Positions 42,813 through 57,672 of a stretch of 64,000 nt of DNA are shown here, one piece after another. The stretch is taken from IMG/VR virus record IMGVR_UViG_3300045988_076381; one strand, given 5' to 3'. Each line of letters opens with the position of its first letter. Within the stretch, counting starts at the first letter, position 1. The DNA comes from a virus. The notes under the pieces are model-generated. The model was not told the DNA's origin. It searched no databases and saw nothing but the letters and a program-made list of their open reading frames with translations. A program made the translations under genes and the position numbers.

Positions 42813-43586
42813 TTAAGCGTCTATTGTTAAATATTCTATAATCATTCTGGGATTATTGTAATCTATATTACCTTCTTGTATACCTCCGATTTGTAGTCCA
42901 ATAGAATCTAATGGGATAGCATTAACATTTCCAAAATCCCATAAAAGTGCTCTTATACTATTTGATTCATTGATATGATATAACTTATTATTTATATATT
43001 CTATTGCGAAAATATTAGCTTTTCCCATATCTCCTCCATATATTATAGGATGATTAATTGGATCAGCATTTCCATTAACGTCTTGTACTACTATTTTAAT
43101 TGTTGGGTTAGTAGTATCTGTACTTCTTAATATACTTAAATACTTTCTATCATTAGTATCTGATACTAAAAGAGTTAATAAACAATTATAAGAATTTTCA
43201 GAACTTCCAATAGCAGTAATAGTATATCTAAAAGAAACTCTCCAATTATTTTTTCGATTCTCGAATAGATTAGCTATTAATATAGATGAATAATCTTTCA
43301 TAAACATGGCTCCAGTGCTACTATGCGAAATTGCTCCTACTTTTCGAATAACTGAAGTAACAGAAGATGTAGTTGTATTAGATGCTCCATTATATAAAAA
43401 GATCCGAGATAATATTTTAATTATATCATCATCTGCTGGAAAATCATATAAACTATAACTACTAAGTGGAGTAGGATCGGCTCCAGAGAGAATAGCTCCA
43501 TCTTTATGTATAAAATTCATATTTGTACTACTAGGAGATCCTAATCTATTAGCAGCATCTTTAAAAGTTAAAAAATCCTTACTCAT
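42813..43586 (-). CDS. hypothetical receptor-binding-cluster protein (257 aa)
   Basis: Beta-rich ORF adjacent to the MAEF paralog array. Confidence 0.45.
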   Translation of the reverse strand: MSKDFLTFKDAANRLGSPSSTNMNFIHKDGAILSGADPTPLSSYSLYDFPADDDIIKILSRIFLYNGASNTTTSSVTSVIRKVGAISHSSTGAMFMKDYSSILIANLFENRKNNWRVSFRYTITAIGSSENSYNCLLTLLVSDTNDRKYLSILRSTDTTNPTIKIVVQDVNGNADPINHPIIYGGDMGKANIFAIEYINNKLYHINESNSIRALLWDFGNVNAIPLDSIGLQIGGIQEGNIDYNNPRMIIEYLTIDA

Positions 43587-43590
43587 ATTT

Positions 43591-43905
43591 CTAAGTTTTA
43601 GTTCCGAATACTATCCAATCTATAGTTTTTGGATCTTTTCCTCCACTATACAATTCTATATATGTCTTTGTTACACCCATAACATTACAAGAATATCCAG
43701 CTTCATTATTTCCCCGAAATGAACATACAGCAGTTCTTGGTATATAATCTCCTTGTAACGATACTCTAGTTTCAGTATGTCCCTCACATAAAGTACTTCC
43801 TATCTCAAATACCAAAGGACCTAATGTCATGACTACATGACCTGGTCTAATTATATCATGTGTAGTCTCTAATATATTATCTAATTCCGTTATAAACTCC
43901 GCCAT
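43591..43905 (-). CDS. MAEF-family small protein, paralog 1 (104 aa); fibre-tip/adaptor-like
   Basis: It shows MAEFITE.., GNNEAGY, GGKDPK and WIVFG. These motifs are shared with the three upstream paralogs. Confidence 0.55.
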   Translation of the reverse strand: MAEFITELDNILETTHDIIRPGHVVMTLGPLVFEIGSTLCEGHTETRVSLQGDYIPRTAVCSFRGNNEAGYSCNVMGVTKTYIELYSGGKDPKTIDWIVFGTKT

Positions 43906-43942
43906 AATTGATTATTTACTGATAATCCTATTATTAAAAATG

Positions 43943-44221
43943 TTACAGTTTTATCATCTTTTCCCCCAGAGAAAATGTTACTCCTGTAGTATTTAAACTA
44001 GATATACTTATAGCATATCCTTGTTCATCATTATTTTTTAATGAAGCCATTCCGGTAATTATCCCACTAAATCCTTTTAATGGTACAGAAACAACATCAT
44101 ACCCAGGACAAGTAGTAGTTCCATAAGCGATTCGTAGTCCTTTATAATTTATATATGTAACAGGATCTACCATTTCCACGGAATAGTCCTCTAAATTATC
44201 TTCTGTTAAAAATTCAGCCAT
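43943..44221 (-). CDS. MAEF-family paralog 2 (92 aa), C-terminally truncated relative to the family
   Basis: It shows MAEFLTE.. and NNDEQGY. The frame breaks at a G5A4 run (43959-43967). The -1 frame continues as GGKDDKTVTFLIIG, which matches the family C-terminus. Confidence 0.5.
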   Translation of the reverse strand: MAEFLTEDNLEDYSVEMVDPVTYINYKGLRIAYGTTTCPGYDVVSVPLKGFSGIITGMASLKNNDEQGYAISISSLNTTGVTFSLGEKMIKL

Positions 44222-44223
44222 AT

Positions 44224-44517
44224 TTAATCACTTTCTCCTATTATTAAATAATAAAATTCTTTAGGATCTTTCCCTCCGAGTATGAAAATAGCCGAGGTAT
44301 TAGTATAAGAGGATAAATTTACTGTATAACCTGCTTCATTATTATTTTTTAAACAACAGAATACTCCATATACTGATTTAAATCCGGAATAAGTAATTGT
44401 TATACCTCTACTAGTTATAGAAGAATATCCTCCAACCATTCTGAGTCCTAAACCTTCAATCCCTCCAGATCCAGTAGAATCTAAAGCTCTATCGTCTACA
44501 GTTAGATATTCTGCCAT
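44224..44517 (-). CDS. MAEF-family paralog 3 (97 aa)
   Basis: It shows MAEYLTV.., NNNEAGY, GGKDPK and YYLIIG. Confidence 0.55.
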   Translation of the reverse strand: MAEYLTVDDRALDSTGSGGIEGLGLRMVGGYSSITSRGITITYSGFKSVYGVFCCLKNNNEAGYTVNLSSYTNTSAIFILGGKDPKEFYYLIIGESD

Positions 44518-44669
44518 ATTATATTATTTTAGCTCTTTGTTTTAATCGATGTACATCATCTTCTAAAGATTGGATTTTGTCTTTTATTATATTTAATTCT
44601 AAGGAATCTTTTTTAATAAAGATTCTATGTAAAAATGTTTTAATTTTATTTAGTAACATATTAATTTAA

Positions 44670-45008
44670 TTAATATCCTATAGCTAACCAAAAAAATTCA
44701 CTTCTGGTATTTACTGGAGGAGTTCCTACTAATTCTACTGTACATGAGGAATTTGTGAAGGATTTGATGGTTAAAACATCTCCTTTAGACCAATGACCAT
44801 AATAATTATTAGGAGTGAGTTGCACTACACAGCATTTAGTAGGAAATGTTTTTGGATACGATACTGTTGCAGTCATACTTCCAGTATTAAAGTTACTAAG
44901 TCCTGACTGAATTAATATCCCCCCCCCTTGTAAGATATCTGCTCTTGTAGGAGCTGCTTTAGAGAATAAGGTATTTAAATTATCTCTGGTTATAAATTCC
45001 TTTGCCAT
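44670..45008 (-). CDS. MAEF-family paralog 4 (112 aa), gp53-like fibre C-terminal pattern ending WLAIGY
   Basis: It reads MAKEFIT.. and ends FFWLAIGY. It contains an in-frame G9 tract encoding GGG. Confidence 0.55.
   Translation of the reverse strand: MAKEFITRDNLNTLFSKAAPTRADILQGGGILIQSGLSNFNTGSMTATVSYPKTFPTKCCVVQLTPNNYYGHWSKGDVLTIKSFTNSSCTVELVGTPPVNTRSEFFWLAIGY
44919..44927 (-). repeat. G9 homopolymer inside CDS 44670..45008
   Basis: Nine consecutive C on the plus strand. A change of +1 or -1 nt gives a stop within a few codons. Confidence 0.9.
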
Positions 45009-45038
45009 TTATTAATATTTTATTTAATTGTTATATAT

Positions 45039-45779
45039 TTATGTTAATTTTTTATATGTATTTCCACTTCTAATTAATTCTGTCCACCATATATCTCCTT
45101 TATAATTGATGAGTTCTGGAAGAATTCCTACAAGTCCAAACTCTTTTACCTCACTGTGGGCATAAATATCAAGTAAATAAGGATATGATTTTTGGTTAGG
45201 TATAGACATACTTATACATTTATTACTTCCATATATTAAACATCTCACAAAAAACCTTGTAATAACTTCTCTAGAAGGAATAGGATATGTTTGTTGCCAT
45301 GACGTGCGCCAATCCCAAGTATTACTAATTGTTATATAATTCTGACCATTCTCATCTATATACCATGTACTGTACCGACCTGTATCTTCTTTAGTAAGAA
45401 CTTGAGAATACATAGTAGGACTAACATCCTTTCCTTTAGTATAAGAACATGAATCGTTAGTCTCATTTACATATAATCTAGCTACACTCCTATACGTTTC
45501 TCCAACATCAAAATACGCATAATGATAATTATCAATTTTCTCTACATAAAAAAAAGATCTTGGGTATTTAAAATTACTACCAGTATAAGCAGCTATAGCA
45601 GTGAGAGTATTATTAGATGTATTTAATTTATATATTCTGAATTGCGTATCAGCATCTGGAGAAGATCCACTACAACAAAATAGATAATTACCTGATAAAG
45701 CCGAAGTAGCTATATTATACCAATATCCAGTAGAACCACCCAGAGATATAGGTGTAGTAACCATTGTACCATTAACCAC
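45039..45779 (-). CDS. hypothetical beta-rich protein (246 aa from GTG); the frame stays open upstream to 45911
   Basis: The listed ORF starts at a GTG. The same frame continues for 44 more sense codons with protein-like sequence and overlaps the end of ORF 45860..46045. Confidence 0.5.
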   Translation of the reverse strand: MVNGTMVTTPISLGGSTGYWYNIATSALSGNYLFCCSGSSPDADTQFRIYKLNTSNNTLTAIAAYTGSNFKYPRSFFYVEKIDNYHYAYFDVGETYRSVARLYVNETNDSCSYTKGKDVSPTMYSQVLTKEDTGRYSTWYIDENGQNYITISNTWDWRTSWQQTYPIPSREVITRFFVRCLIYGSNKCISMSIPNQKSYPYLLDIYAHSEVKEFGLVGILPELINYKGDIWWTELIRSGNTYKKLT

Positions 45780-45859
45780 AACTCCGAAAGTGATATGTTT
45801 AAAATCGGAAGCTGCATAAACAAACGGAATTCTTTCATCATCAGGATTTGCTACAACAC

Positions 45860-46045
45860 CTATACGACAATAGACACTTCTGTAGAAAGAAAATCGTTTA
45901 AAACCTGCATATTATCAATAGACTTTTGTACTTTCGATAGAGGTATGAATTCCATAGAAGAATACGAAGTTAATAAATCCTCTCTTGCTCCTCCGGAGAT
46001 TGCCTGAATTTTAGCTACAAATTCAGACCCCCCCCCCACCTCCAT
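45860..46045 (-). CDS. small ORF (61 aa); possible 5' part of a frameshifted gene
   Basis: It starts ATG GAG GTG then G-run (MEVGGGSEF..). It ends 17 codons after a T_TTA_AAC heptamer. Confidence 0.4.
   Translation of the reverse strand: MEVGGGSEFVAKIQAISGGAREDLLTSYSSMEFIPLSKVQKSIDNMQVLNDFLSTEVSIVV
45896..45902 (-). promoter_or_regulatory. candidate -1 programmed ribosomal frameshift heptamer T_TTA_AAC
   Basis: The heptamer is in the correct phase of ORF 45860..46045 (GTT TTA AAC). It lies 3 codons after the -1 frame opens (TAA at 45914..45912). Confidence 0.4.
46028..46037 (-). repeat. G10 homopolymer at codons 3-6 of ORF 45860..46045
   Basis: Ten consecutive C on the plus strand. Confidence 0.9.
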
Positions 46046-46078
46046 TTATAGAAGATCCTAAAATATTATTTGTTTGTG

Positions 46079-48463
46079 CTATAGTAGCAAATTCTTCTGA
46101 CATAATTCTTTTAAATTACTTATTTCCTGTTCTAAATATTTTATTTTTTTCTCAAATTCTTTCTGAGATTTAATTCTTAAATTATATTCCTCTTTTAAAG
46201 CCTCTTGAAGAAGGATTGTATATCTTTCATATGAAAATGTTAAAATAGAATTATTTATTTCTTTTACAAGCTCTGGATAATATTTATTCCAGTATTGAGC
46301 TGAGGTTCCTATACATAAATCATTCTCGTCCATCCAATTATATTTAAATCCGGGAGAATTTAATACTAAAGATAATGTATTAGATAAATTCTCTATATTA
46401 TGCTTGTATCTAATATCAGATACAGAAGTTGTTCCAGCTCCATTTGTATGAACAGTATGTTTTGTGAAAGTGATTTCGTCAAGACTATTAATCTTAGCCA
46501 TTATTGTTTCAGGTGTTTCTCCGGAAGAATTCATTAATGTATCTACATCAACCCTTAAACTAAGAATATTCTGTTGTAATGGAACTAAATCAGATAGATA
46601 AGATATTTCATTATCTCCCCATGTAATCCTTCTATTAAAAGTGCTAGGTATATTAAACACGTTATTAGTCCCCTCTTTATTTGGAATCCATACTCGAAAA
46701 TCAGTATCCATACCTAGTATCGACCAGTTTATTTCTTTTGTAGAAGGTGCAGATAATTTAAGCATTCCGTTTATCTCACAATCTCCTTTTAATCTTATAT
46801 ATCTACAATACACTTTTTCAGAATAGACTCCGTATATATCAGAACCTAATAAAGTATCAAAATATATAGGATCTCTAATACCTTCTAAACACCCTAATCT
46901 TAATCTAGGAGATAAGGGTGTAACTTCATCATTTATACCTAAATAAGATTTATCTAAACATTCTCCAGTCTTAGGATTTGTTTCTCTAATACTATGTAAA
47001 TATAAAGAATCTTGAGTTTTTAAATATAAAATATCCCCAACTTCTGGAAGTTTTTCTAATTCTCTCTTTCTTTCCTCATCAGTAGTTTTATCTAAATACT
47101 CTTCTAAATCCTTATCTAAAACATTCCCATCGATAGTAGCAACTATATTACATCCAGAAATTGTAAAAGTACCCTCATCATAAATCCATTCTAATTTTTC
47201 AATCTTAATTCTTCCTTTAGATATTATTTTAGTAGTAGGAATTAAAGTACTTACATCAATCCCTTCCTCAGAATTTTCTGGGATTTCTACATTATATCCA
47301 TAAGAATGCTTCTCAAAATATAAATAATCTCCTATTTTTATATTATAAATCCCATTTATAGATATCTCATATTTAATAGGAATAACTTCTCCAGATTCTC
47401 CAGATTCTTCTTCATCAGGAACTATTTCAGATATACTAGATACAATTCCTTGTGGTTCAAAGAAATAATTAGTATTTAATCCTCTAGTAATAAAATCCTT
47501 CTCTTTAGATGAACTATCCCCAAACGGGCCTTTAGCAGAATTTCTCACTATTAAATTATCTACTTCTAAAGTCCACTCTGAATTTATATTCTCTAATCTA
47601 TATCCAGCCATTCCCTCTATGAAATTATCAGATATTATTCCAGAATTAAGAACAGCTTTATCTTTCACATATATATTTCCATCTACCTCAAAATTATAGT
47701 TATAAGTTGGGGGATATCCTATAGATATATATTTTCCATTTATATATGTGATACCTTCTTTAGAATTAAATTTAATTCCAGAAGTATTAGTATCTAAAAC
47801 TATTTCATTATTATTAACTACTATATTTAAATAATCTTGTTGATTTTTTACCTGCAACCCGTTTGGACCAATTACATTAAGATCTCCGGACCCATGGAGA
47901 TTATTTTCTAAATTAATAGTCACTTTATCTTTAACTATTCCTCCAGAGGATAGATTTAGATATAATTCTACTAAAGTTCCATTGTTATTATAGTAATGAA
48001 CTTTATCATCAGAATTAAAATAAACAAAATCAGTAGGTAAGATTGCAATATTATCTTGGTTATCTATAATAACTTTTAAATTCCTTTGAGCAGTTCTGAT
48101 TTGTTCTAGAGTAAGATTTTGATTATAATTGATAGCTAAATAATCCTCAGAAGTTTCTACGTCGTCTCTATTAGATAATATTGGATATAGCACTCCATTT
48201 ATTTGAAAATAAATTGAATCTTCTGATTTTACAAAATACCAACCATCAGCAGCTCCTATATCATTTTTATTCTGAACAATATTTATACTATTAGTATCAT
48301 CAGTAGTCTTACATACCTTTCCATTAGAAATAAGATCTAAAAAAGAATTTCCGAATCTAACTTTTATATTACCTTTTCCATTAAGAATAATATCAGTATC
48401 AGCAGATCCTACCATTAAATATGGCTTTCCTAGAATCTTTTCTACTTTAATAAGTTCTCCCAT
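46079..48463 (-). CDS. tail fibre/spike with C-terminal S74 intramolecular chaperone domain (794 aa)
   Basis: The C-terminus SDIRYKHNIENLSNTLSLVLNSPGFKYNW...IGTSAQYWNKYYPELV...FSYERYTILLQEALKEE matches the Peptidase_S74 auto-cleaving chaperone pattern. Confidence 0.75.
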   Translation of the reverse strand: MGELIKVEKILGKPYLMVGSADTDIILNGKGNIKVRFGNSFLDLISNGKVCKTTDDTNSINIVQNKNDIGAADGWYFVKSEDSIYFQINGVLYPILSNRDDVETSEDYLAINYNQNLTLEQIRTAQRNLKVIIDNQDNIAILPTDFVYFNSDDKVHYYNNNGTLVELYLNLSSGGIVKDKVTINLENNLHGSGDLNVIGPNGLQVKNQQDYLNIVVNNNEIVLDTNTSGIKFNSKEGITYINGKYISIGYPPTYNYNFEVDGNIYVKDKAVLNSGIISDNFIEGMAGYRLENINSEWTLEVDNLIVRNSAKGPFGDSSSKEKDFITRGLNTNYFFEPQGIVSSISEIVPDEEESGESGEVIPIKYEISINGIYNIKIGDYLYFEKHSYGYNVEIPENSEEGIDVSTLIPTTKIISKGRIKIEKLEWIYDEGTFTISGCNIVATIDGNVLDKDLEEYLDKTTDEERKRELEKLPEVGDILYLKTQDSLYLHSIRETNPKTGECLDKSYLGINDEVTPLSPRLRLGCLEGIRDPIYFDTLLGSDIYGVYSEKVYCRYIRLKGDCEINGMLKLSAPSTKEINWSILGMDTDFRVWIPNKEGTNNVFNIPSTFNRRITWGDNEISYLSDLVPLQQNILSLRVDVDTLMNSSGETPETIMAKINSLDEITFTKHTVHTNGAGTTSVSDIRYKHNIENLSNTLSLVLNSPGFKYNWMDENDLCIGTSAQYWNKYYPELVKEINNSILTFSYERYTILLQEALKEEYNLRIKSQKEFEKKIKYLEQEISNLKELCQKNLLL

Positions 48464-48531: not shown

Positions 48532-48560
48532 AAAAAAAAGAAGAGAATCCCTTCTCTTCT
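48532..48560 (-). terminator. rho-independent terminator
   Basis: On the minus strand GAAGAGAA-GGGA-TTCTCTTC is followed by T8. Confidence 0.75.
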
Positions 48561-51720: not shown

Positions 51721-54700
51721 TTATATTAATTTTTGTATTAAAGAAGTTAAATCATTTAATCTAGTATTTAAAGAGTTGATATCTTCTTTAAATTTCTTTC
51801 TTTCTTCTTCTCTTAATCTATGTTCTTCTTTTAAAGCTTTTTGTAGTACTACTGTATATCTTTCATATGAGAAAGTTTTTGTTCCATCCTCCATCTCATG
51901 TACTAATTCCGGAATTTTATCTTCCCAATATTGTGCTGAGGTACCTATAGAGGTAGTTGTTTCATCCTTCCAGTTATATGTAAATTCTGGAGCATTGAGG
52001 ACTTTATTTAAAGTATCATCTGGTAAAGAATTAAAATTAGATTTGAATCTTATATCTGATGTAGATTGTAACCCTGCTCCAGCTGAACATACTACATGCT
52101 TCGTAAAAGTAATCTCGGATTGAGAATTAATTTTTGACATAATAGTAGCAGCTGTCTCAGCACTTGGAATAGAAGGCCTGTTACTTAAATCATTATAACT
52201 TCCGGATGTAGCTACGGTAGCAAATGATGGTTTACTTGTGACTTCACTCCAAGATGGCCAACGAGTCACATAAGCTGAGGGTGCAGCCTTTAACAAAGCA
52301 TCCCAAGAAGCTTGTAGATCACTAATATCAGATAAAGGATGTGTGTGACTTGACGGAGTAAAGGTACTTGGTTTACTTGTTATCTCAGACCAAGAATAAG
52401 AAGGCTTACTTGGTGCTTTTGCCCACGCATACACATCAGAAGCAGGCATTGAAGACGGAAAATCTGTTATCTGAGACTTGGCATGTGTATGACTAGAGGG
52501 TGCGGCTTCAATAAGCGTTCTTACCTCAGAAGGTGCAATATCTCTAAATACTTTGCATCCATTTACTAATGTTTTATCAATACCCACAAGATGTGATGCT
52601 GTAGAAGCAGTTAATCCATATCCATTATAAGCAAGCTGGATGTTATTGCTACCCCCACCTGAATCCAATATATATGTTGCCGGACCCCCAGCACTAGGAG
52701 AAGCAGCATAATTATGGGTATGAGAACTAGCAGCTGCCCCAATAGCAGCAGGAGTGATATTCACAGTTTTAGCTGCATTAGGAGCATATGTGGTATTAGT
52801 AGATCCGTTGAATTTGATAGTTAATGCTGCTATGTTAGACGTATCTAAAATAGTATATTGTGTACCATTTTTGCAGTGCATTAAATTAGTATTACTTGAT
52901 CGCAGTATCATTTGATCTACCACGGTACCAATTTCTACTTGTGTATTAGTTACTCCATCAACTCCAGCTTGATGGTAGGCTAGTAGAGCATTACCATCTA
53001 TACTTTCTATATAATTTGTGTTAATTCTGGGAACAGTTAACCTTCCAGTAAGAGTACCACCAGTAAGAGGCAAATAACCACTCAAATGAGTAGTAGTAGC
53101 TAACTCCTTCCAAGCTGTGTGTTCATCCTTATTACTTCCTGCTGGTGATCCAGCTCTAACAAACCATCTGTTAGAAGTATAGGTTCCATAGATTTGACTT
53201 GAACCATCATATACTCCGGGAATGACGATAAGAGATCCTGCTTGCTGTATTGGGTATCCTCTGTCTGTAGTAGCATCACTATTAGCTGGTTGAGCAGCCA
53301 TCATCGGAAAATGATTAAACGAACTATTTAAGCTTGTAGTTCCGAGATTCCTTGAGAAATTATAAGAATCAAATATCAGACAATGCACACCATTTCTATA
53401 ATGTAGTAGATCAGAACTATTTGATCTAAATACCAGTTGAGAGTCTGGTGTGCCTACTCCTACTTGTGTATTACTTACTCCAGTCCAATCTGTTGGATGA
53501 TAACTCAATAATCCGAGTTGCTCACGAGTAGTCGATATTGAATCTACATTTAACTTATTATAAATAATTACAGGAACATTTGTACCTGACGGCCCTCCTA
53601 CTACAATCCTATTATCGGATCCCATGTATATCCCTTCCACCCATGTTCCTCCGGTCTGCTTAAAAAGAATCCCATAAGTATTAGATAATACAGGCCTTCC
53701 ATCTGCAGTTATAGACATTTGCCCTCTGCCATTATAAGGATAGTATACAGTACTTAAATCTGATATATCATCTTTAAAAGCTAATTCTTTATACCAAGTA
53801 ATCTTTCCACTGTCCCCACCTCCAATAACAGCTTTCATAATATTACCTTCGTGTGCTACACTAAGGTAAGCATGAGTATCCCCGATGGCCCATCCTAAAG
53901 AGGCAGCATGAGCTCCGGCAGTTCCTAGGTCTGCCGAACCACTTCTGAAAGGCACTACCCAAGAAACACCGGAATTTGACCCCCAGATAGTTTCTGGAAA
54001 CTTATTTATAAGATTATCCCCAAAAGATGAAGAGGAAACTGATTTTATTCTAGTAGCTTTAGGAGTCCCTATAATATTTCCCTCTAAAGTGTAATTTAAT
54101 AAAAGTTCTTCTACATTTAAGTTACTAGTATCATAGACTGTGTACTCAGCACCATTCTTATAATGTTTTATATCATTGTCTCCTATAGTATGAATCGTAG
54201 TCTGTGAATTCTGATCATTTCCGGAAGTAATTATTCCAGATTTAATATTTCCATTAACATCAGTATACCCTAATCTAGTGACATAACTATTTCCGGAATT
54301 ATCTATATTTAATAATGCAGTATTGCCTAAATCACCTCCTATTAAAGTTTCATAATCCCCGAAGCTTCCTAGATATAAAGAAGTACCATTAGTACTATTC
54401 CTCATAAATAAAGCCCATGCATTTTCTCCAGTATCAGTCTTATTTACTAACGCGGAAGTTGGAGAAAAATATAAAGGACCAGTTAAAGCATTTGTAGATC
54501 CGGCACTTAGAGGTAAGTAATGACCAACTAAAGATTCTACGGTAGCAAAGGGTTTTCCATCTTTATCACAGAAATTTCCCCACATTGGAAAATTAACATG
54601 TAATGGAGTATATGTTGAATTAAGATTATATGTAACACTTCCATCAGATCCTGTAGTTTCAGTAATTTCTATAGTATTTTGTTCAATATCTGGGACATTA

Positions 54701-57672
54701 CTACTAGAAGATATAGAGAATCCCCCATTTACATAATGTAATGTTAATTTCTTATTAGGGTCATTTGGATTAACAACTACGAGACTATCAAATCCATCTA
54801 TAGAAGTAATAACATTGGTATTACTATCCCAAGCTAAATATTTCTTATTTAAATTCCAATAATTAGCAAATACTATCTGAGATAAATCGGAGGTTCTAAA
54901 TCCAGTAGGAATTATTATACTAACACTAAATCCTAATTCCAGAGAATTTGTCTTGATTAAAGAACGATCCCGAGAAGGGATAAATTGTATAGTATCACCA
55001 GCTATATCAAATGTAAAACTATCAGTACCTCCATAAAATTGACAACTTTGATCTTTAAATCCAATATATGAATCTAGAATAATAGGATTAGTAAATCCTA
55101 AGGCTTTATGTGAGCTAGTTAATATATCTAATATAGGAATTTTATAAACAGCCTCTCTTGTCAAAGTAACTCTTGGAGATATAACAAGATTCCATGCATT
55201 TGATGCTTTAAGCCCTGCAATATCAAAATTCCCATTTTGGGTTGATAATTTAACTTGATTATCAACATCATCAATACTAGGGAAAAAATCTAATCCTCCT
55301 TTATCAGTATATACAGCATTTAAGGCTTTGATTGTTTTTTTATCCGAATCGTATTGTAAAAACATTCTATCCGATATATCAGGATCGATAAAAGCTAGTT
55401 CGTATCCATCATCTCTTTTAAAAGTTGAAGCCCAAATTTCTTTATCAAATACATATTTAGTAGCAGAAGGACTAGATTTAAATAAAATATCATCTAAAAC
55501 CCTTAAACTTAAATATTTATCATTAGTATCTCCATATTGTAGATATAAATCATTATCAACTCTTTTAAATATAATATCTGTATCTTTCTCAGATAGATTT
55601 TGTAATGCAAACCTTAAAGCCAATTGAATTGGAACAGTACTAGTAGTTTGTGCTCTTTTAAATGTAGAATTCCAGGTTAAGAAAGCACCATCTACCATAT
55701 CAGGTTCATTATCTCGAAGCATTAAAGGGAATTGATTTCCCTCAGTACCACATTTAAATCTATCATCAGATTCATCAAAGATAATAAAATAATTCGGAAG
55801 TTTTCCTCTATCAATCTCCAATCCAGAGATTCCTTTAGTGACGCCTTCACCTTGTTCTCCACTATTTAAAGTAAGAATATTATCAGTTACTTTTACTTCT
55901 TCTGTATCTATAATGAAAGCACTTCCACCAAATACTATATCCTCTTTAATAGTTAAATTTCTAACTATTAAATCTCCATATTCTGTATCATCCTCATTTC
56001 TAACACTAAATCCTTCTTTTTCATTCTTCAATATCTGATCTCCTATTTTCCATGTTTTAGATGGTGTTCCTTCATATGTAAGAGGAGTTCCATTAACATC
56101 CTTTAATCCTTGTATTACATTGAAATCTGTTGAAGTAATAGATCCGGCAATGGTAGATGTAGCCATTGGGAGAGAATAATATTTATCTTCGTAGGTATTT
56201 AAAAAGGGATTATATGATTGATAATGTATAATTGCTTGAGTTGCAGATGTTGTGTCGGTATCTATTAAATCTGTTAGATATTTAACTACATTATCTAGTT
56301 TCCCTTTATCAGATGAAGACATTACTCCCGCTTTTTCCGAAGTGGCAGATTTAAATACTATCTGTACTGGTTCTTCTACTCCAGTTTGTGGGTTATTAGT
56401 AACTAAATTTAATATAACAGAATTAGAGTTGTACGTATTATCAGATACAGCTTGGACAATAGAAGAAATATTTCCTAATTTATTCTTCTCCATTGCTGTG
56501 ATTAATCCGGCAGTAGATGAGGTAGCAGCATCTAATACTAAATATTTAGACGTTACTTTTTTAGATATAGGATCATATATAGGAAATATTATTTGTAGAT
56601 CTTGTCCAGTATATTCTTTAGTAGGATCTCCTGTGTAATAACTCTTTAGCGAATCTATATAATCCTTATATTTAGGAGACATTAATCCGGATATTGCAGA
56701 AGATACATCAGGGAAGCTAAGTATCTTAGAACTAGATTCTCCAATAGTAGGATCTTTAGTAGTCACTTTAAGAGAAGCTCTATTATTAGCCTCAGCATAC
56801 TCTACATTTTCTACATAATCAAAGATTTGATTTATTTTAAATATCTGAGAAGTATCTAATAAATCCTTTCCAGGAGCGACATCTACTTTTTTATTTAATA
56901 ACTCCTGTACTTCTTCTTTTGTGTATATATTATTAGTAACAGTATTTAATAATCTAGAAAGATTTAAACAAGCCTCCTTAGACATTAAACCATTCTGATT
57001 TATATTAGCCTCCCGAATTGGTAAGGATTTAGTTCCATCACTACTAACTATATCTAACACTAAAGTATCAGCTCCAGAAAATGATATTTCTTTTACATAT
57101 TTAGTAATTGAATCTAATTTAGTTTTATCCTCCTTACTAAATAATCCGGGAGTGGTTGGTGAAGCGACAGGAAGTGTAACACCATCCCCAGAAGAATTTA
57201 ATATCTGAATATTATCTTGATTTATTTTCATACTTAAATGGATAGTAGAAATATCTACTAAAGCTCCATTATTATATCTATACTCTTTTGAATCCTTTTT
57301 ATTAAAGAACTCATATCCATCTTTTAATTGTATTCTATCCCAATATTTAAGAGTATCTCTCCAAGTACAATGGTAATATTTATCCTCTACTCTTAATATA
57401 TAAGATACTCCACTTTCAGCATTGCTTGGAATATTATCTACTATATCTTCTACGGGACTTAAATGTGTAGGTTCTGAAACATCATTTAATTGAAGAATGT
57501 CTGTGGATATGACAACATCTGGAGATTGTTTGATTATAAGTTTTTTGGTGATAGGATTAAATTCTATTTCTTTTATCCTAAAATCCTCTACTCTCTTATC
57601 AAAACAAGATTCAGGTGTTATATTATATATCTTACTTTCACATCCACTGGAATTTTGTGCTTTGGTAATCAT
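51721..57672 (-). CDS. long tail fibre (1983 aa) with HxH fibre repeats and C-terminal S74 chaperone domain
   Basis: It has three SSHTH (His-x-His) repeats and repeated SE(I/V)TSKPS units. The C-terminus SDIRFKSNF...FTYNW...IGTSAQYWEDKIPELV...FSYERYTVVLQKALKEE matches S74. Confidence 0.75.
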   Translation of the reverse strand: MITKAQNSSGCESKIYNITPESCFDKRVEDFRIKEIEFNPITKKLIIKQSPDVVISTDILQLNDVSEPTHLSPVEDIVDNIPSNAESGVSYILRVEDKYYHCTWRDTLKYWDRIQLKDGYEFFNKKDSKEYRYNNGALVDISTIHLSMKINQDNIQILNSSGDGVTLPVASPTTPGLFSKEDKTKLDSITKYVKEISFSGADTLVLDIVSSDGTKSLPIREANINQNGLMSKEACLNLSRLLNTVTNNIYTKEEVQELLNKKVDVAPGKDLLDTSQIFKINQIFDYVENVEYAEANNRASLKVTTKDPTIGESSSKILSFPDVSSAISGLMSPKYKDYIDSLKSYYTGDPTKEYTGQDLQIIFPIYDPISKKVTSKYLVLDAATSSTAGLITAMEKNKLGNISSIVQAVSDNTYNSNSVILNLVTNNPQTGVEEPVQIVFKSATSEKAGVMSSSDKGKLDNVVKYLTDLIDTDTTSATQAIIHYQSYNPFLNTYEDKYYSLPMATSTIAGSITSTDFNVIQGLKDVNGTPLTYEGTPSKTWKIGDQILKNEKEGFSVRNEDDTEYGDLIVRNLTIKEDIVFGGSAFIIDTEEVKVTDNILTLNSGEQGEGVTKGISGLEIDRGKLPNYFIIFDESDDRFKCGTEGNQFPLMLRDNEPDMVDGAFLTWNSTFKRAQTTSTVPIQLALRFALQNLSEKDTDIIFKRVDNDLYLQYGDTNDKYLSLRVLDDILFKSSPSATKYVFDKEIWASTFKRDDGYELAFIDPDISDRMFLQYDSDKKTIKALNAVYTDKGGLDFFPSIDDVDNQVKLSTQNGNFDIAGLKASNAWNLVISPRVTLTREAVYKIPILDILTSSHKALGFTNPIILDSYIGFKDQSCQFYGGTDSFTFDIAGDTIQFIPSRDRSLIKTNSLELGFSVSIIIPTGFRTSDLSQIVFANYWNLNKKYLAWDSNTNVITSIDGFDSLVVVNPNDPNKKLTLHYVNGGFSISSSSNVPDIEQNTIEITETTGSDGSVTYNLNSTYTPLHVNFPMWGNFCDKDGKPFATVESLVGHYLPLSAGSTNALTGPLYFSPTSALVNKTDTGENAWALFMRNSTNGTSLYLGSFGDYETLIGGDLGNTALLNIDNSGNSYVTRLGYTDVNGNIKSGIITSGNDQNSQTTIHTIGDNDIKHYKNGAEYTVYDTSNLNVEELLLNYTLEGNIIGTPKATRIKSVSSSSFGDNLINKFPETIWGSNSGVSWVVPFRSGSADLGTAGAHAASLGWAIGDTHAYLSVAHEGNIMKAVIGGGDSGKITWYKELAFKDDISDLSTVYYPYNGRGQMSITADGRPVLSNTYGILFKQTGGTWVEGIYMGSDNRIVVGGPSGTNVPVIIYNKLNVDSISTTREQLGLLSYHPTDWTGVSNTQVGVGTPDSQLVFRSNSSDLLHYRNGVHCLIFDSYNFSRNLGTTSLNSSFNHFPMMAAQPANSDATTDRGYPIQQAGSLIVIPGVYDGSSQIYGTYTSNRWFVRAGSPAGSNKDEHTAWKELATTTHLSGYLPLTGGTLTGRLTVPRINTNYIESIDGNALLAYHQAGVDGVTNTQVEIGTVVDQMILRSSNTNLMHCKNGTQYTILDTSNIAALTIKFNGSTNTTYAPNAAKTVNITPAAIGAAASSHTHNYAASPSAGGPATYILDSGGGSNNIQLAYNGYGLTASTASHLVGIDKTLVNGCKVFRDIAPSEVRTLIEAAPSSHTHAKSQITDFPSSMPASDVYAWAKAPSKPSYSWSEITSKPSTFTPSSHTHPLSDISDLQASWDALLKAAPSAYVTRWPSWSEVTSKPSFATVATSGSYNDLSNRPSIPSAETAATIMSKINSQSEITFTKHVVCSAGAGLQSTSDIRFKSNFNSLPDDTLNKVLNAPEFTYNWKDETTTSIGTSAQYWEDKIPELVHEMEDGTKTFSYERYTVVLQKALKEEHRLREEERKKFKEDINSLNTRLNDLTSLIQKLI

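Follow-up and report, generated by a model that had tools for sequence, protein, structure and literature searches.

Three runs of guanine bases within a host-recognition gene cluster of the DNA of an uncultivated human-gut phage, analysed as a stretch of 64,000 nucleotides (nt) of the IMG/VR virus record IMGVR_UViG_3300045988_076381 (referred to as the window in the following), probably constitute simple-sequence contingency loci of accessory host-recognition genes. The runs, which in the order of the coding strand are G10, G9 and G5, are situated on the minus strand in three genes designated gene X, paralog 4 and paralog 2. An earlier note on this stretch had interpreted them as a slipped-strand phase-variation system. 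Comparison with related genomes supports this interpretation inasmuch as tract length turned out to be polymorphic rather than invariant at all three sites, with both in-frame (ON) and out-of-frame (OFF) states being present. Further support comes from the ratio of non-synonymous to synonymous substitution rates (dN/dS) observed in genomes which harbour an OFF state. The tracts and the genes containing them are the following:

46023..46103, minus strand: true 5' end of gene X with the N-terminal anchor module MSEEFATIAQTNNILGSSINGGGGG (translation; alignment with full-length orthologues of 353-364 aa)
46028..46037, minus strand: G10 tract in the glycine loop of the gene X N-terminal module, in frame if G9 or G12
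45860..46045, minus strand: open reading frame (ORF) of 61 amino acids (aa) given in the earlier note, middle piece of gene X (three-frame translation; alignment to Dulem virus 41 and L002-L010)
45881..45883, minus strand: window-specific 1-nt deletion, ACC to AC (base present in 10 of 10 aligned relatives)
45039..45902, minus strand: gene X body in the third frame, whose first own start codon is GTG at 45779 (beta-propeller model from an intact orthologue)
44670..45008, minus strand: paralog 4, 112 aa, composed of a MAKEF peptide, a Gly3 linker and a putative Gp53-like_C/pyocin-fibre-like tip domain (Pfam PF21882, PHROG, Foldseek)
44919..44927, minus strand: G9 tract, Gly3 linker of paralog 4, putative hypervariable switch
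43943..44221, minus strand: paralog 2, 92 aa as read, C-terminus lost through G5
43963..43967, minus strand: G5 tract, contracted OFF state of a variable tract (comparison with relatives)
43890..43967, minus strand: out-of-frame sequence in which the lost, conserved paralog 2 C-terminus is still encoded (translation)

Poly-G tracts of the window

A homopolymer scan of the whole window, whose G+C content amounts to 29.3%, reveals only two runs of G or C exceeding six bases, namely C9 at 44919-44927 and C10 at 46028-46037 of the plus strand. They correspond to G9 and G10 on the coding minus strand and are separated by 1.1 kb. The G5A4 stretch of the coding strand appears on the plus strand as T4 at 43959-43962 and C5 at 43963-43967. 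The scan agrees with the positions that the earlier note had assigned to G9, G10 and G5A4, and also with its remark that no comparable G/C homopolymers exist elsewhere in the window: the next longest run is a single C6 at 16836, while C5 runs, including the one at 43963-43967, occur 14 times. G9 and G10 are exceptional, whereas G5 taken alone is unremarkable.

The number of C runs of at least nine bases to be expected per window is 0.0065 under an order-0 model and 0.03 if calculated from the empirical run-extension probability of 0.22. A run of this length was reached in 12 of 300 simulations with a third-order Markov model which had been trained on a sequence that itself contains both tracts. 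The codon GGG accounts for 12.8% of all glycine codons, and the 21 long ORFs contain only two further Gly-Gly-Gly tripeptides, both of which are encoded by mixed codons. The presence of two such long runs 1.1 kb apart is not explained by chance, as the note had already supposed in calling a chance occurrence very unlikely. The three sites display what is characteristic of contingency loci: a homopolymer far above background inside an ORF (G9 and G10 compared to a maximum of six bases elsewhere), a shift of frame with a truncated product upon length change (at paralog 4, gene X and paralog 2), and length polymorphism among close relatives between conserved flanks (at all three sites).

The G9 tract of paralog 4

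Relatives were collected from GenBank (Dulem virus 41 from lemur faeces), IMG/VR, one metagenome scan and a protein collection; individual relatives are denoted by L numbers. For the paralog 4 site, we obtained 34 distinct variants with G5 to G12 between conserved flanks, 11 of them being in frame and 21 out of frame, with two lacking the upstream part. The run-length spectrum comprises five (n = 2), seven (n = 1), eight (n = 8), nine (n = 14), ten (n = 5), eleven (n = 3) and twelve (n = 1) bases, and the G run is kept uninterrupted in all 34 variants. In the window, G9 is in frame within the 112-aa ORF at 44670-45008, i.e. paralog 4 is ON. OFF alleles of relatives with other tract lengths stop at 30 to 38 aa, which bears out the statement of the earlier note that a gain or loss of one G truncates this protein. 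In Dulem virus 41 the orthologous tract is G12, and the depositors of this genome annotated two coding sequences of 32 and 82 aa at this place. The protein collection contains in-frame forms of paralog 4 with Gly2, Gly3 and Gly4 as well as about 22 clusters of 81-82 aa which start right after the tract.

Tract length differs in three of four pairs of variants with at most five differences in 800 flanking nt, and in 10 of 15 pairs with at most 16 differences. Pairs with merely two to five differences in 800 flanking bases are already unequal in tract length. According to parsimony, a neighbour-joining tree of 30 paralog 4 variants requires 17 or more length changes and no fewer than five ON/OFF switches. 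The rate ratio obtained by parsimony from this tree is only at least 19-fold, owing to saturation of the character and the length of the tree, and the comparison of close pairs is more telling than this value. As a control, A/T runs of 6-7 nt within the same loci were inspected and found to be practically invariant among relatives, so that a general homopolymer error, tested on these runs, was rejected. The sole variable A/T run is an intergenic A8 at 48532-48539, upstream of the gene of a 794-aa tail fibre, which measures seven to nine bases among relatives and whose length could affect promoter spacing.

In 20 of the 21 OFF variants the 82 codons following the paralog 4 tract are intact. The dN/dS value downstream of the tract amounts to 0.112 for OFF-OFF, 0.125 for OFF-ON and 0.126 for ON-ON pairs, and the variable sites are concentrated at third codon positions. 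The intact frame together with the equal dN/dS implies that the OFF states are young relative to the divergence of the variants and that the domain is still under selection. Such equal purifying selection in ON and OFF variants fits reversible switching, not decay, and its persistence in OFF genomes is what a reversible contingency locus would be expected to show.

The assembly is interrupted at the site in two contigs. A 96,960-bp IMG/VR contig (L014) begins inside the paralog 4 G tract and a 13,870-bp contig (L043, 13823-13870) ends 38 nt past it, which fits local read heterogeneity as well as assembler difficulty.

The G10 tract and the double disruption of gene X

Orthologues of gene X are single ORFs of 351-364 aa, and the gene of the window, whose true start is the ATG at 46103 with the module MSEEFATIAQTNNILGSSINGGGGG, would comprise about 354 aa. 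The earlier note had located the G10 tract correctly, but the ORF 45860..46045 to which it had assigned the tract is not a gene of its own, being a fragment of gene X. With G10, translation from 46103 encounters a stop after 26 aa and gene X is OFF; G9 would connect this ATG to the frame of the 61-aa ORF. Among 11 DNA variants of the gene X site, G7 and G9 are ON, G10 (found in the window and in L004) is OFF, and G8AG6 and G8AGGG are ON. Further variants are a 27-nt OFF form and a mixed-codon form, GGTGGAGGTGGAGGTGGA, which is ON and encodes the same glycine loop. About nine database clusters of 332-335 aa begin after the gene X tract, as does the 61-aa ORF.

A second lesion, the 1-nt deletion at about 45882, shifts gene X into an ORF of 246 aa and is present in none of the ten aligned relatives. 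Gene X is doubly disrupted in the window, by G10 and by this private deletion, and is a pseudogene there unless the deletion reflects an assembly or consensus error. An interpretation of G10 gain and deletion as a compensating pair was rejected since the stretch of about 150 nt between them contains stops in that frame. We also rejected a programmed -1 frameshift at T_TTA_AAC (45896-45902, minus strand) joining the ORFs of 61 and 246 aa because this heptamer is kept in relatives with a continuous ORF (L002, L004, L005), the change of frame being caused by the private deletion. The in-frame position of the canonical slippery heptamer just upstream of the deletion is probably coincidental.

An AlphaFold model of gene X was calculated from the intact orthologue P0102, which is identical to gene X of L005 (predicted local distance difference test score, pLDDT, 86). 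It exhibits a helical N-terminal module of about 75 residues followed by a beta-propeller, and its least confident residues, 22-24, are those of the glycine loop. The neighbours retrieved by Foldseek are propellers, with the best template modelling (TM) scores to pseudaminidase and sialidase. We consider this a fold match only, which implies no claim on a catalytic site.

The G5 tract of paralog 2

It is exactly at G5A4 that paralog 2 departs from the reading frame which encodes its conserved C-terminus. The lost end, GGKDDKTVTFLIIGLSVNNQLWRSL followed by a stop, is readable out of frame at 43890-43967, and the loss of the family-conserved C-terminus at this place had been recognised rightly in the earlier note. 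Nine variants from relatives carry G6 and are ON, encoding 110 aa which end with LGGKDDKTVTFLIIGLSVNNQLWRSL; other lengths are G8 (one ON, one OFF) and G11 (OFF). A paralog 2 gene of 110 aa is called in L050-L052. With its G5, paralog 2 of the window is OFF and nearly locked.

Nature of the encoded proteins

Homology, fold and position beside two Peptidase_S74 fibre genes suggest that the products of the genes with tracts are receptor-binding or tail-fibre proteins. Residues 29-112 of paralog 4 match positions 4-84 of the 84 positions of the Pfam profile PF21882, Gp53-like_C, with 48.6 bits compared to a gathering cut-off of 24.9 (1.2e-12), while paralogs 1-3 stay below the gathering threshold of this family. 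PF21882 is described as "putative tail fiber protein gp53-like, C-terminal". Further matches of paralog 4 are to PHROG tail-fibre families, at the extreme C-termini of these. Its AlphaFold model shows an N-terminal helix followed by a beta-sandwich, and the only significant PDB neighbours found by Foldseek are the C-terminal parts of R1 and R2 pyocin tail fibres (E 4e-5 to 3e-4, TM 0.54-0.58). A search of the PDB with the paralog 4 sequence retrieved chance-level matches only (subtilisin, antibodies). For gene X, paralogs 1-3 and a 257-aa protein encoded at the downstream end of the cluster, no Pfam or PHROG families were found. By sequence and model, the proteins of the cluster appear to be fibre-tip-like in nature.

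Proposed mechanism and alternatives

Each of the runs codes for a few consecutive glycines, which in gene X and paralog 4 would serve as a flexible linker between an N-terminal anchor peptide or module and a C-terminal domain, and which in paralog 2 belong to the GGKD motif directly preceding the last conserved beta-strand. We infer that the polymerase slips on the G run during replication of the phage DNA. Gain or loss of one or two G would shift the domain encoded behind the run out of its reading frame (OFF) and further slippage would restore it (ON), making the switch reversible within the lineage, while changes by three G would alter linker length only. Provided that the products are incorporated into virions, a single phage population would contain virions with differing sets of fibre-tip proteins. 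Such mixed sets might affect the range of hosts and act as a hedge against hosts with varying surface structures.

Several observations weigh against contingency loci. At the paralog 4 site the ON fraction is 11 of 32, just the one third that an unselected, drifting tract would give. The second lesion of gene X lies outside any tract and indicates that the cluster is subject to real decay as well, and extra frameshifts in paralog 4 of L031, L037 and L046 likewise point to some true decay. Furthermore, G5 of paralog 2 is too short for high mutability by usual thresholds, and confidence in the paralog 4 model is only moderate (pLDDT 74).

The ON fraction, the private frameshift of gene X, the additional frameshifts in paralog 4 and the absence of gene X from some relatives would all be accommodated if the runs were non-adaptive hot spots, i.e. 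fragile sites in dispensable genes at which OFF is the first step of pseudogenisation. We regard this as unlikely, however, as the downstream frame is open in all but one of the OFF variants and as dN/dS between these (0.11) is the same as between ON variants. Moreover, near-identical genomes show ON and OFF states side by side, and no paralog 4 variant has an interrupted run, although GGG is rare and the gene X linker works with mixed codons.

RNA polymerase is known to slip on runs of nine or more identical bases. The G runs might therefore act as sites of transcriptional slippage or ribosomal frameshifting which yield a mixture of products in every genome, DNA length being of minor importance. 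Recoding of this kind would also account for selection on the downstream frame in OFF genomes. Yet DNA lengths do vary, in-frame lengths are not avoided and alleles of G5 to G8 are too short for efficient slippage. As relatives whose ORF is uninterrupted also possess the T_TTA_AAC heptamer near the lesion of gene X, there is no programmed frameshift site either, and we rate recoding as somewhat less probable still than the hot spots.

That sequencing or assembly errors simulate variation of tracts which are in truth constant is highly improbable: homopolymers are indeed error-prone and the two contig breaks attest to assembler trouble at the site, but the metagenome scan returned human-gut contigs from many independent samples whose SPAdes-style NODE/cov names let us infer short-read assemblies, so that the variation would not be accounted for by homopolymer errors of long reads. 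Besides, lengths range from 5 to 12 instead of deviating by one base, the A/T runs of 6-7 nt show stability in these loci, and runs as short as the G5 and G6 of paralog 2 are far from the lengths at which errors are common. IMG/VR and ENA versions agree in length, though possibly as copies of the same assemblies.

Gene joints and probable cassette movement

In addition to their presumed role as contingency loci, the G runs form the joints of chimeric genes. In L050 (5001-5342) and L051 (881-1222), whose samples are independent of each other, the gene X N-terminal module is fused via G12 to the tip domain of paralog 4, and the 1.1 kb between the two tracts, i.e. the gene X body, is gone. L052 (4001-4309) combines a different N-terminal module (MENMIYKISLKSSINRGGGG) with poly-G and the same tip domain, likewise lacking the gene X body. 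The two tracts of the window are direct repeats 1.1 kb apart which could mediate deletion of the gene X body.

Ten protein clusters of 100-101 aa (P0051, P0058, P0064-P0068, P0070, P0072, P0073) display an alternative-frame N-terminus, MSYSLNQLLQEQISYK, in front of the glycine run and the tip domain. Due to an out-of-frame ATG in some alleles, one "OFF" length may thus yield a product which is anchor-less or differently anchored. Relatives contain further poly-G runs, among others in homologous N-terminal modules. G8 or G9 occurs within another N-terminal module (STSIT-GGG-KGSEF; L010 428-436, L031/L032), and G7, G9 or G10 within a short remnant ORF upstream of gene X (L010 5716-5722, L035 3828-3837, L047 1724-1732), while a constant G7 is found at 3674-3680 of L009. 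Some relatives are devoid of gene X altogether.

The region 44670-45916 of the window is 81% identical at the nucleotide level to Dulem virus 41 (L001, PP511520.1). The two share only the C-terminal chaperone part of the fibre, gene X and paralog 4, and a search with the portal of the window did not find Dulem virus 41. This partial sharing of the cluster without a portal match suggests that the switch-bearing cassette has been exchanged between lineages. The lineages concerned differ in size and composition (about 160 kb with 29% G+C and about 93 kb with 38% G+C, the latter including the lemur virus). It is conceivable, if rather doubtful, that the G/glycine-linker runs generally act as recombination joints which reshuffle anchor modules and receptor-binding domains, with whole cassettes moving between unrelated lineages of gut phages. 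If true, this would provide a combinatorial host-range engine for crAss-like phages facing phase-variable hosts.

Gene cluster and phage lineage

The remaining genes of the cluster are:

51721..57672, minus strand: tail fibre/spike, 1983 aa, with a C-terminal Peptidase_S74 intramolecular chaperone (Pfam PF13884, 6.8e-8; PHROG tail fibre and minor tail matches)
46079..48463, minus strand: tail fibre, 794 aa, with a Peptidase_S74 chaperone (Pfam PF13884, 9.4e-8; PHROG tail-fibre C-termini)
44519..44659, minus strand: conserved 46-aa ORF between paralogs 4 and 3 (a 46-aa gene is called at the same place in L050-L052)
44224..44517, minus strand: paralog 3, 97 aa, starting with MAEY, GGKD motif encoded by mixed codons, no tract
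43591..43905, minus strand: paralog 1, 104 aa, starting with MAEF, no tract
42813..43586, minus strand: 257-aa protein, starting with MSKDF, similar over its first approximately 57 aa to the gene X N-terminal module

Along the minus strand the order is 1983-aa fibre, which forms the upstream end of the host-recognition cluster, 794-aa fibre, gene X, the four small paralogs and the 257-aa protein. The 3' end of the 794-aa fibre gene and the true start of gene X overlap by 25 nt, an arrangement which is also found in L050 and L052. The four paralogs, which start with MA(K)EF or MAEY and are 26-30% identical to one another, have the N-terminal peptide in common, as well as a GGKDxK...(L/V)(I/F)G strand at the C-terminus. 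Residues 1-57 of the 257-aa protein are 57% identical to the gene X N-terminal module of Dulem virus 41 (tblastn). Inside the gene of the 1983-aa S74 fibre, at 52001-54000, the G+C content rises up to 39% compared to about 29% elsewhere.

Portal and terminase are 38-43% identical to unannotated phage contigs from human faeces and 19-26% identical to proteins of Crassvirales, Cellulophaga phi14:2 and an Azobacteroides phage, which makes this virus a crAss-like gut phage, though a distant one. By size, the related contigs form two classes, one of about 144-168 kb and the other of about 93-97 kb; the lemur-gut Dulem virus 41 measures 93 kb, its locus having a G+C content of 38%. A scan of GTDB for a host retrieved as the sole match a sequence with 26% identity in a contig of an Alistipes metagenome-assembled genome, which is uninformative. 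Every long ORF of the window (1-64000) is located on the minus strand, and GC skew is uniformly negative. A tRNA scan of the 64 kb found none. Within the structural gene block, a 360-aa ORF at 38465-39547 matches a PHROG homing-endonuclease family (1e-11).

Significance and comparison with known systems

CrAss-like and related gut phages persist for years beside their hosts. Among the hosts reported for crAss-like phages are Bacteroidales whose surfaces are phase-variable, and known counter-strategies of gut phages comprise diversity-generating retroelements (DGRs) and invertible segments. The cluster described here offers three readily assayed loci for which, taken together, ON, OFF and locked (mixed-codon) alleles exist in nature. 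Gut metagenome reads which are already available could show whether hedging of the receptor-binding repertoire takes place in these phages. Such genes are split or truncated by gene callers, as is evident from the annotation of Dulem virus 41 and from the database entries of 81-82 and 332-335 aa. Consequently, host-range predictions based on consensus genomes will be unstable at these loci.

The poly-G/C tracts of Campylobacter, Haemophilus and Neisseria are simple-sequence contingency loci of bacteria. With these, the tracts of the window have in common the intragenic homopolymer, the switching of frame and the conservation of the tract itself. In contrast to them, they are borne by a virus and copied in phage-directed replication, and the affected genes would encode virion proteins instead of surface-modifying enzymes.

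In Campylobacter phages of the genus Fletchervirus, genes of receptor-binding proteins contain hypermutable poly-G (Sorensen et al. 2021, Cell Rep 35:109214, as cited in PMC12633550), a precedent to which the earlier note had properly referred. Both systems comprise G runs of about 7-11 nt in several host-recognition genes of an AT-rich, lytic-type phage, and in both a change of length shifts the frame, the proposed role being phenotypic diversity versus a variable host surface. They differ in lineage (distant crAss-like in the present case) and habitat (here human and lemur gut), and the present system is known from sequence alone. Its tracts furthermore reside in the glycine linkers of small stand-alone tip-domain genes and are also found at joints of chimeras. 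A tblastn search with paralog 4 versus 50,697 phage records retrieved Dulem virus 41 only and no Campylobacter phage.

Homopolymer repeats within ORFs of T2/T4 and other phages undergo reversible frameshifts by polymerase slippage, which has been read as bet-hedging (Gomez, Barrick and Waters 2025, preprint, PMC12633550). For the most part these repeats measure at least 6 nt and occur in genes of every class, and they are under-represented in the tail-fibre genes of 41 BASEL coliphages (PMC12633550), whereas the long runs of the window are G-only, far above background and confined to the host-recognition cluster.

As to the encoded proteins, the model of paralog 4 resembles the C-terminal part of R1 and R2 fibres among the R-type pyocin fibre C-terminal domains (PDB 6CL5, 6CL6, 6CT8, 6CXB). 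Unlike these, however, paralog 4 does not form the end of a long fibre but is a free-standing protein of 112 aa with an N-terminal peptide of 27 aa.

In crAss-like and other gut phages DGRs diversify tail-fibre tips (PMC12386605). While in that case a reverse transcriptase rewrites amino acids, repeat length would switch whole domains in the present one. Poly-G switching in gut phages has only been speculated upon (PMC12823448), and no report of it in crAss-like phages was found in the searchable literature. A review-type analysis of zeta crAss-like phages names DGRs, recoding and polymerase swaps, and a term search of it returned neither a poly-G switch nor frameshift. By analogy, the type of mechanism matches that of the Campylobacter phage poly-G loci, which would now be encountered in a distant crAss-like phage, and the use of such tracts as modular joints may be new.

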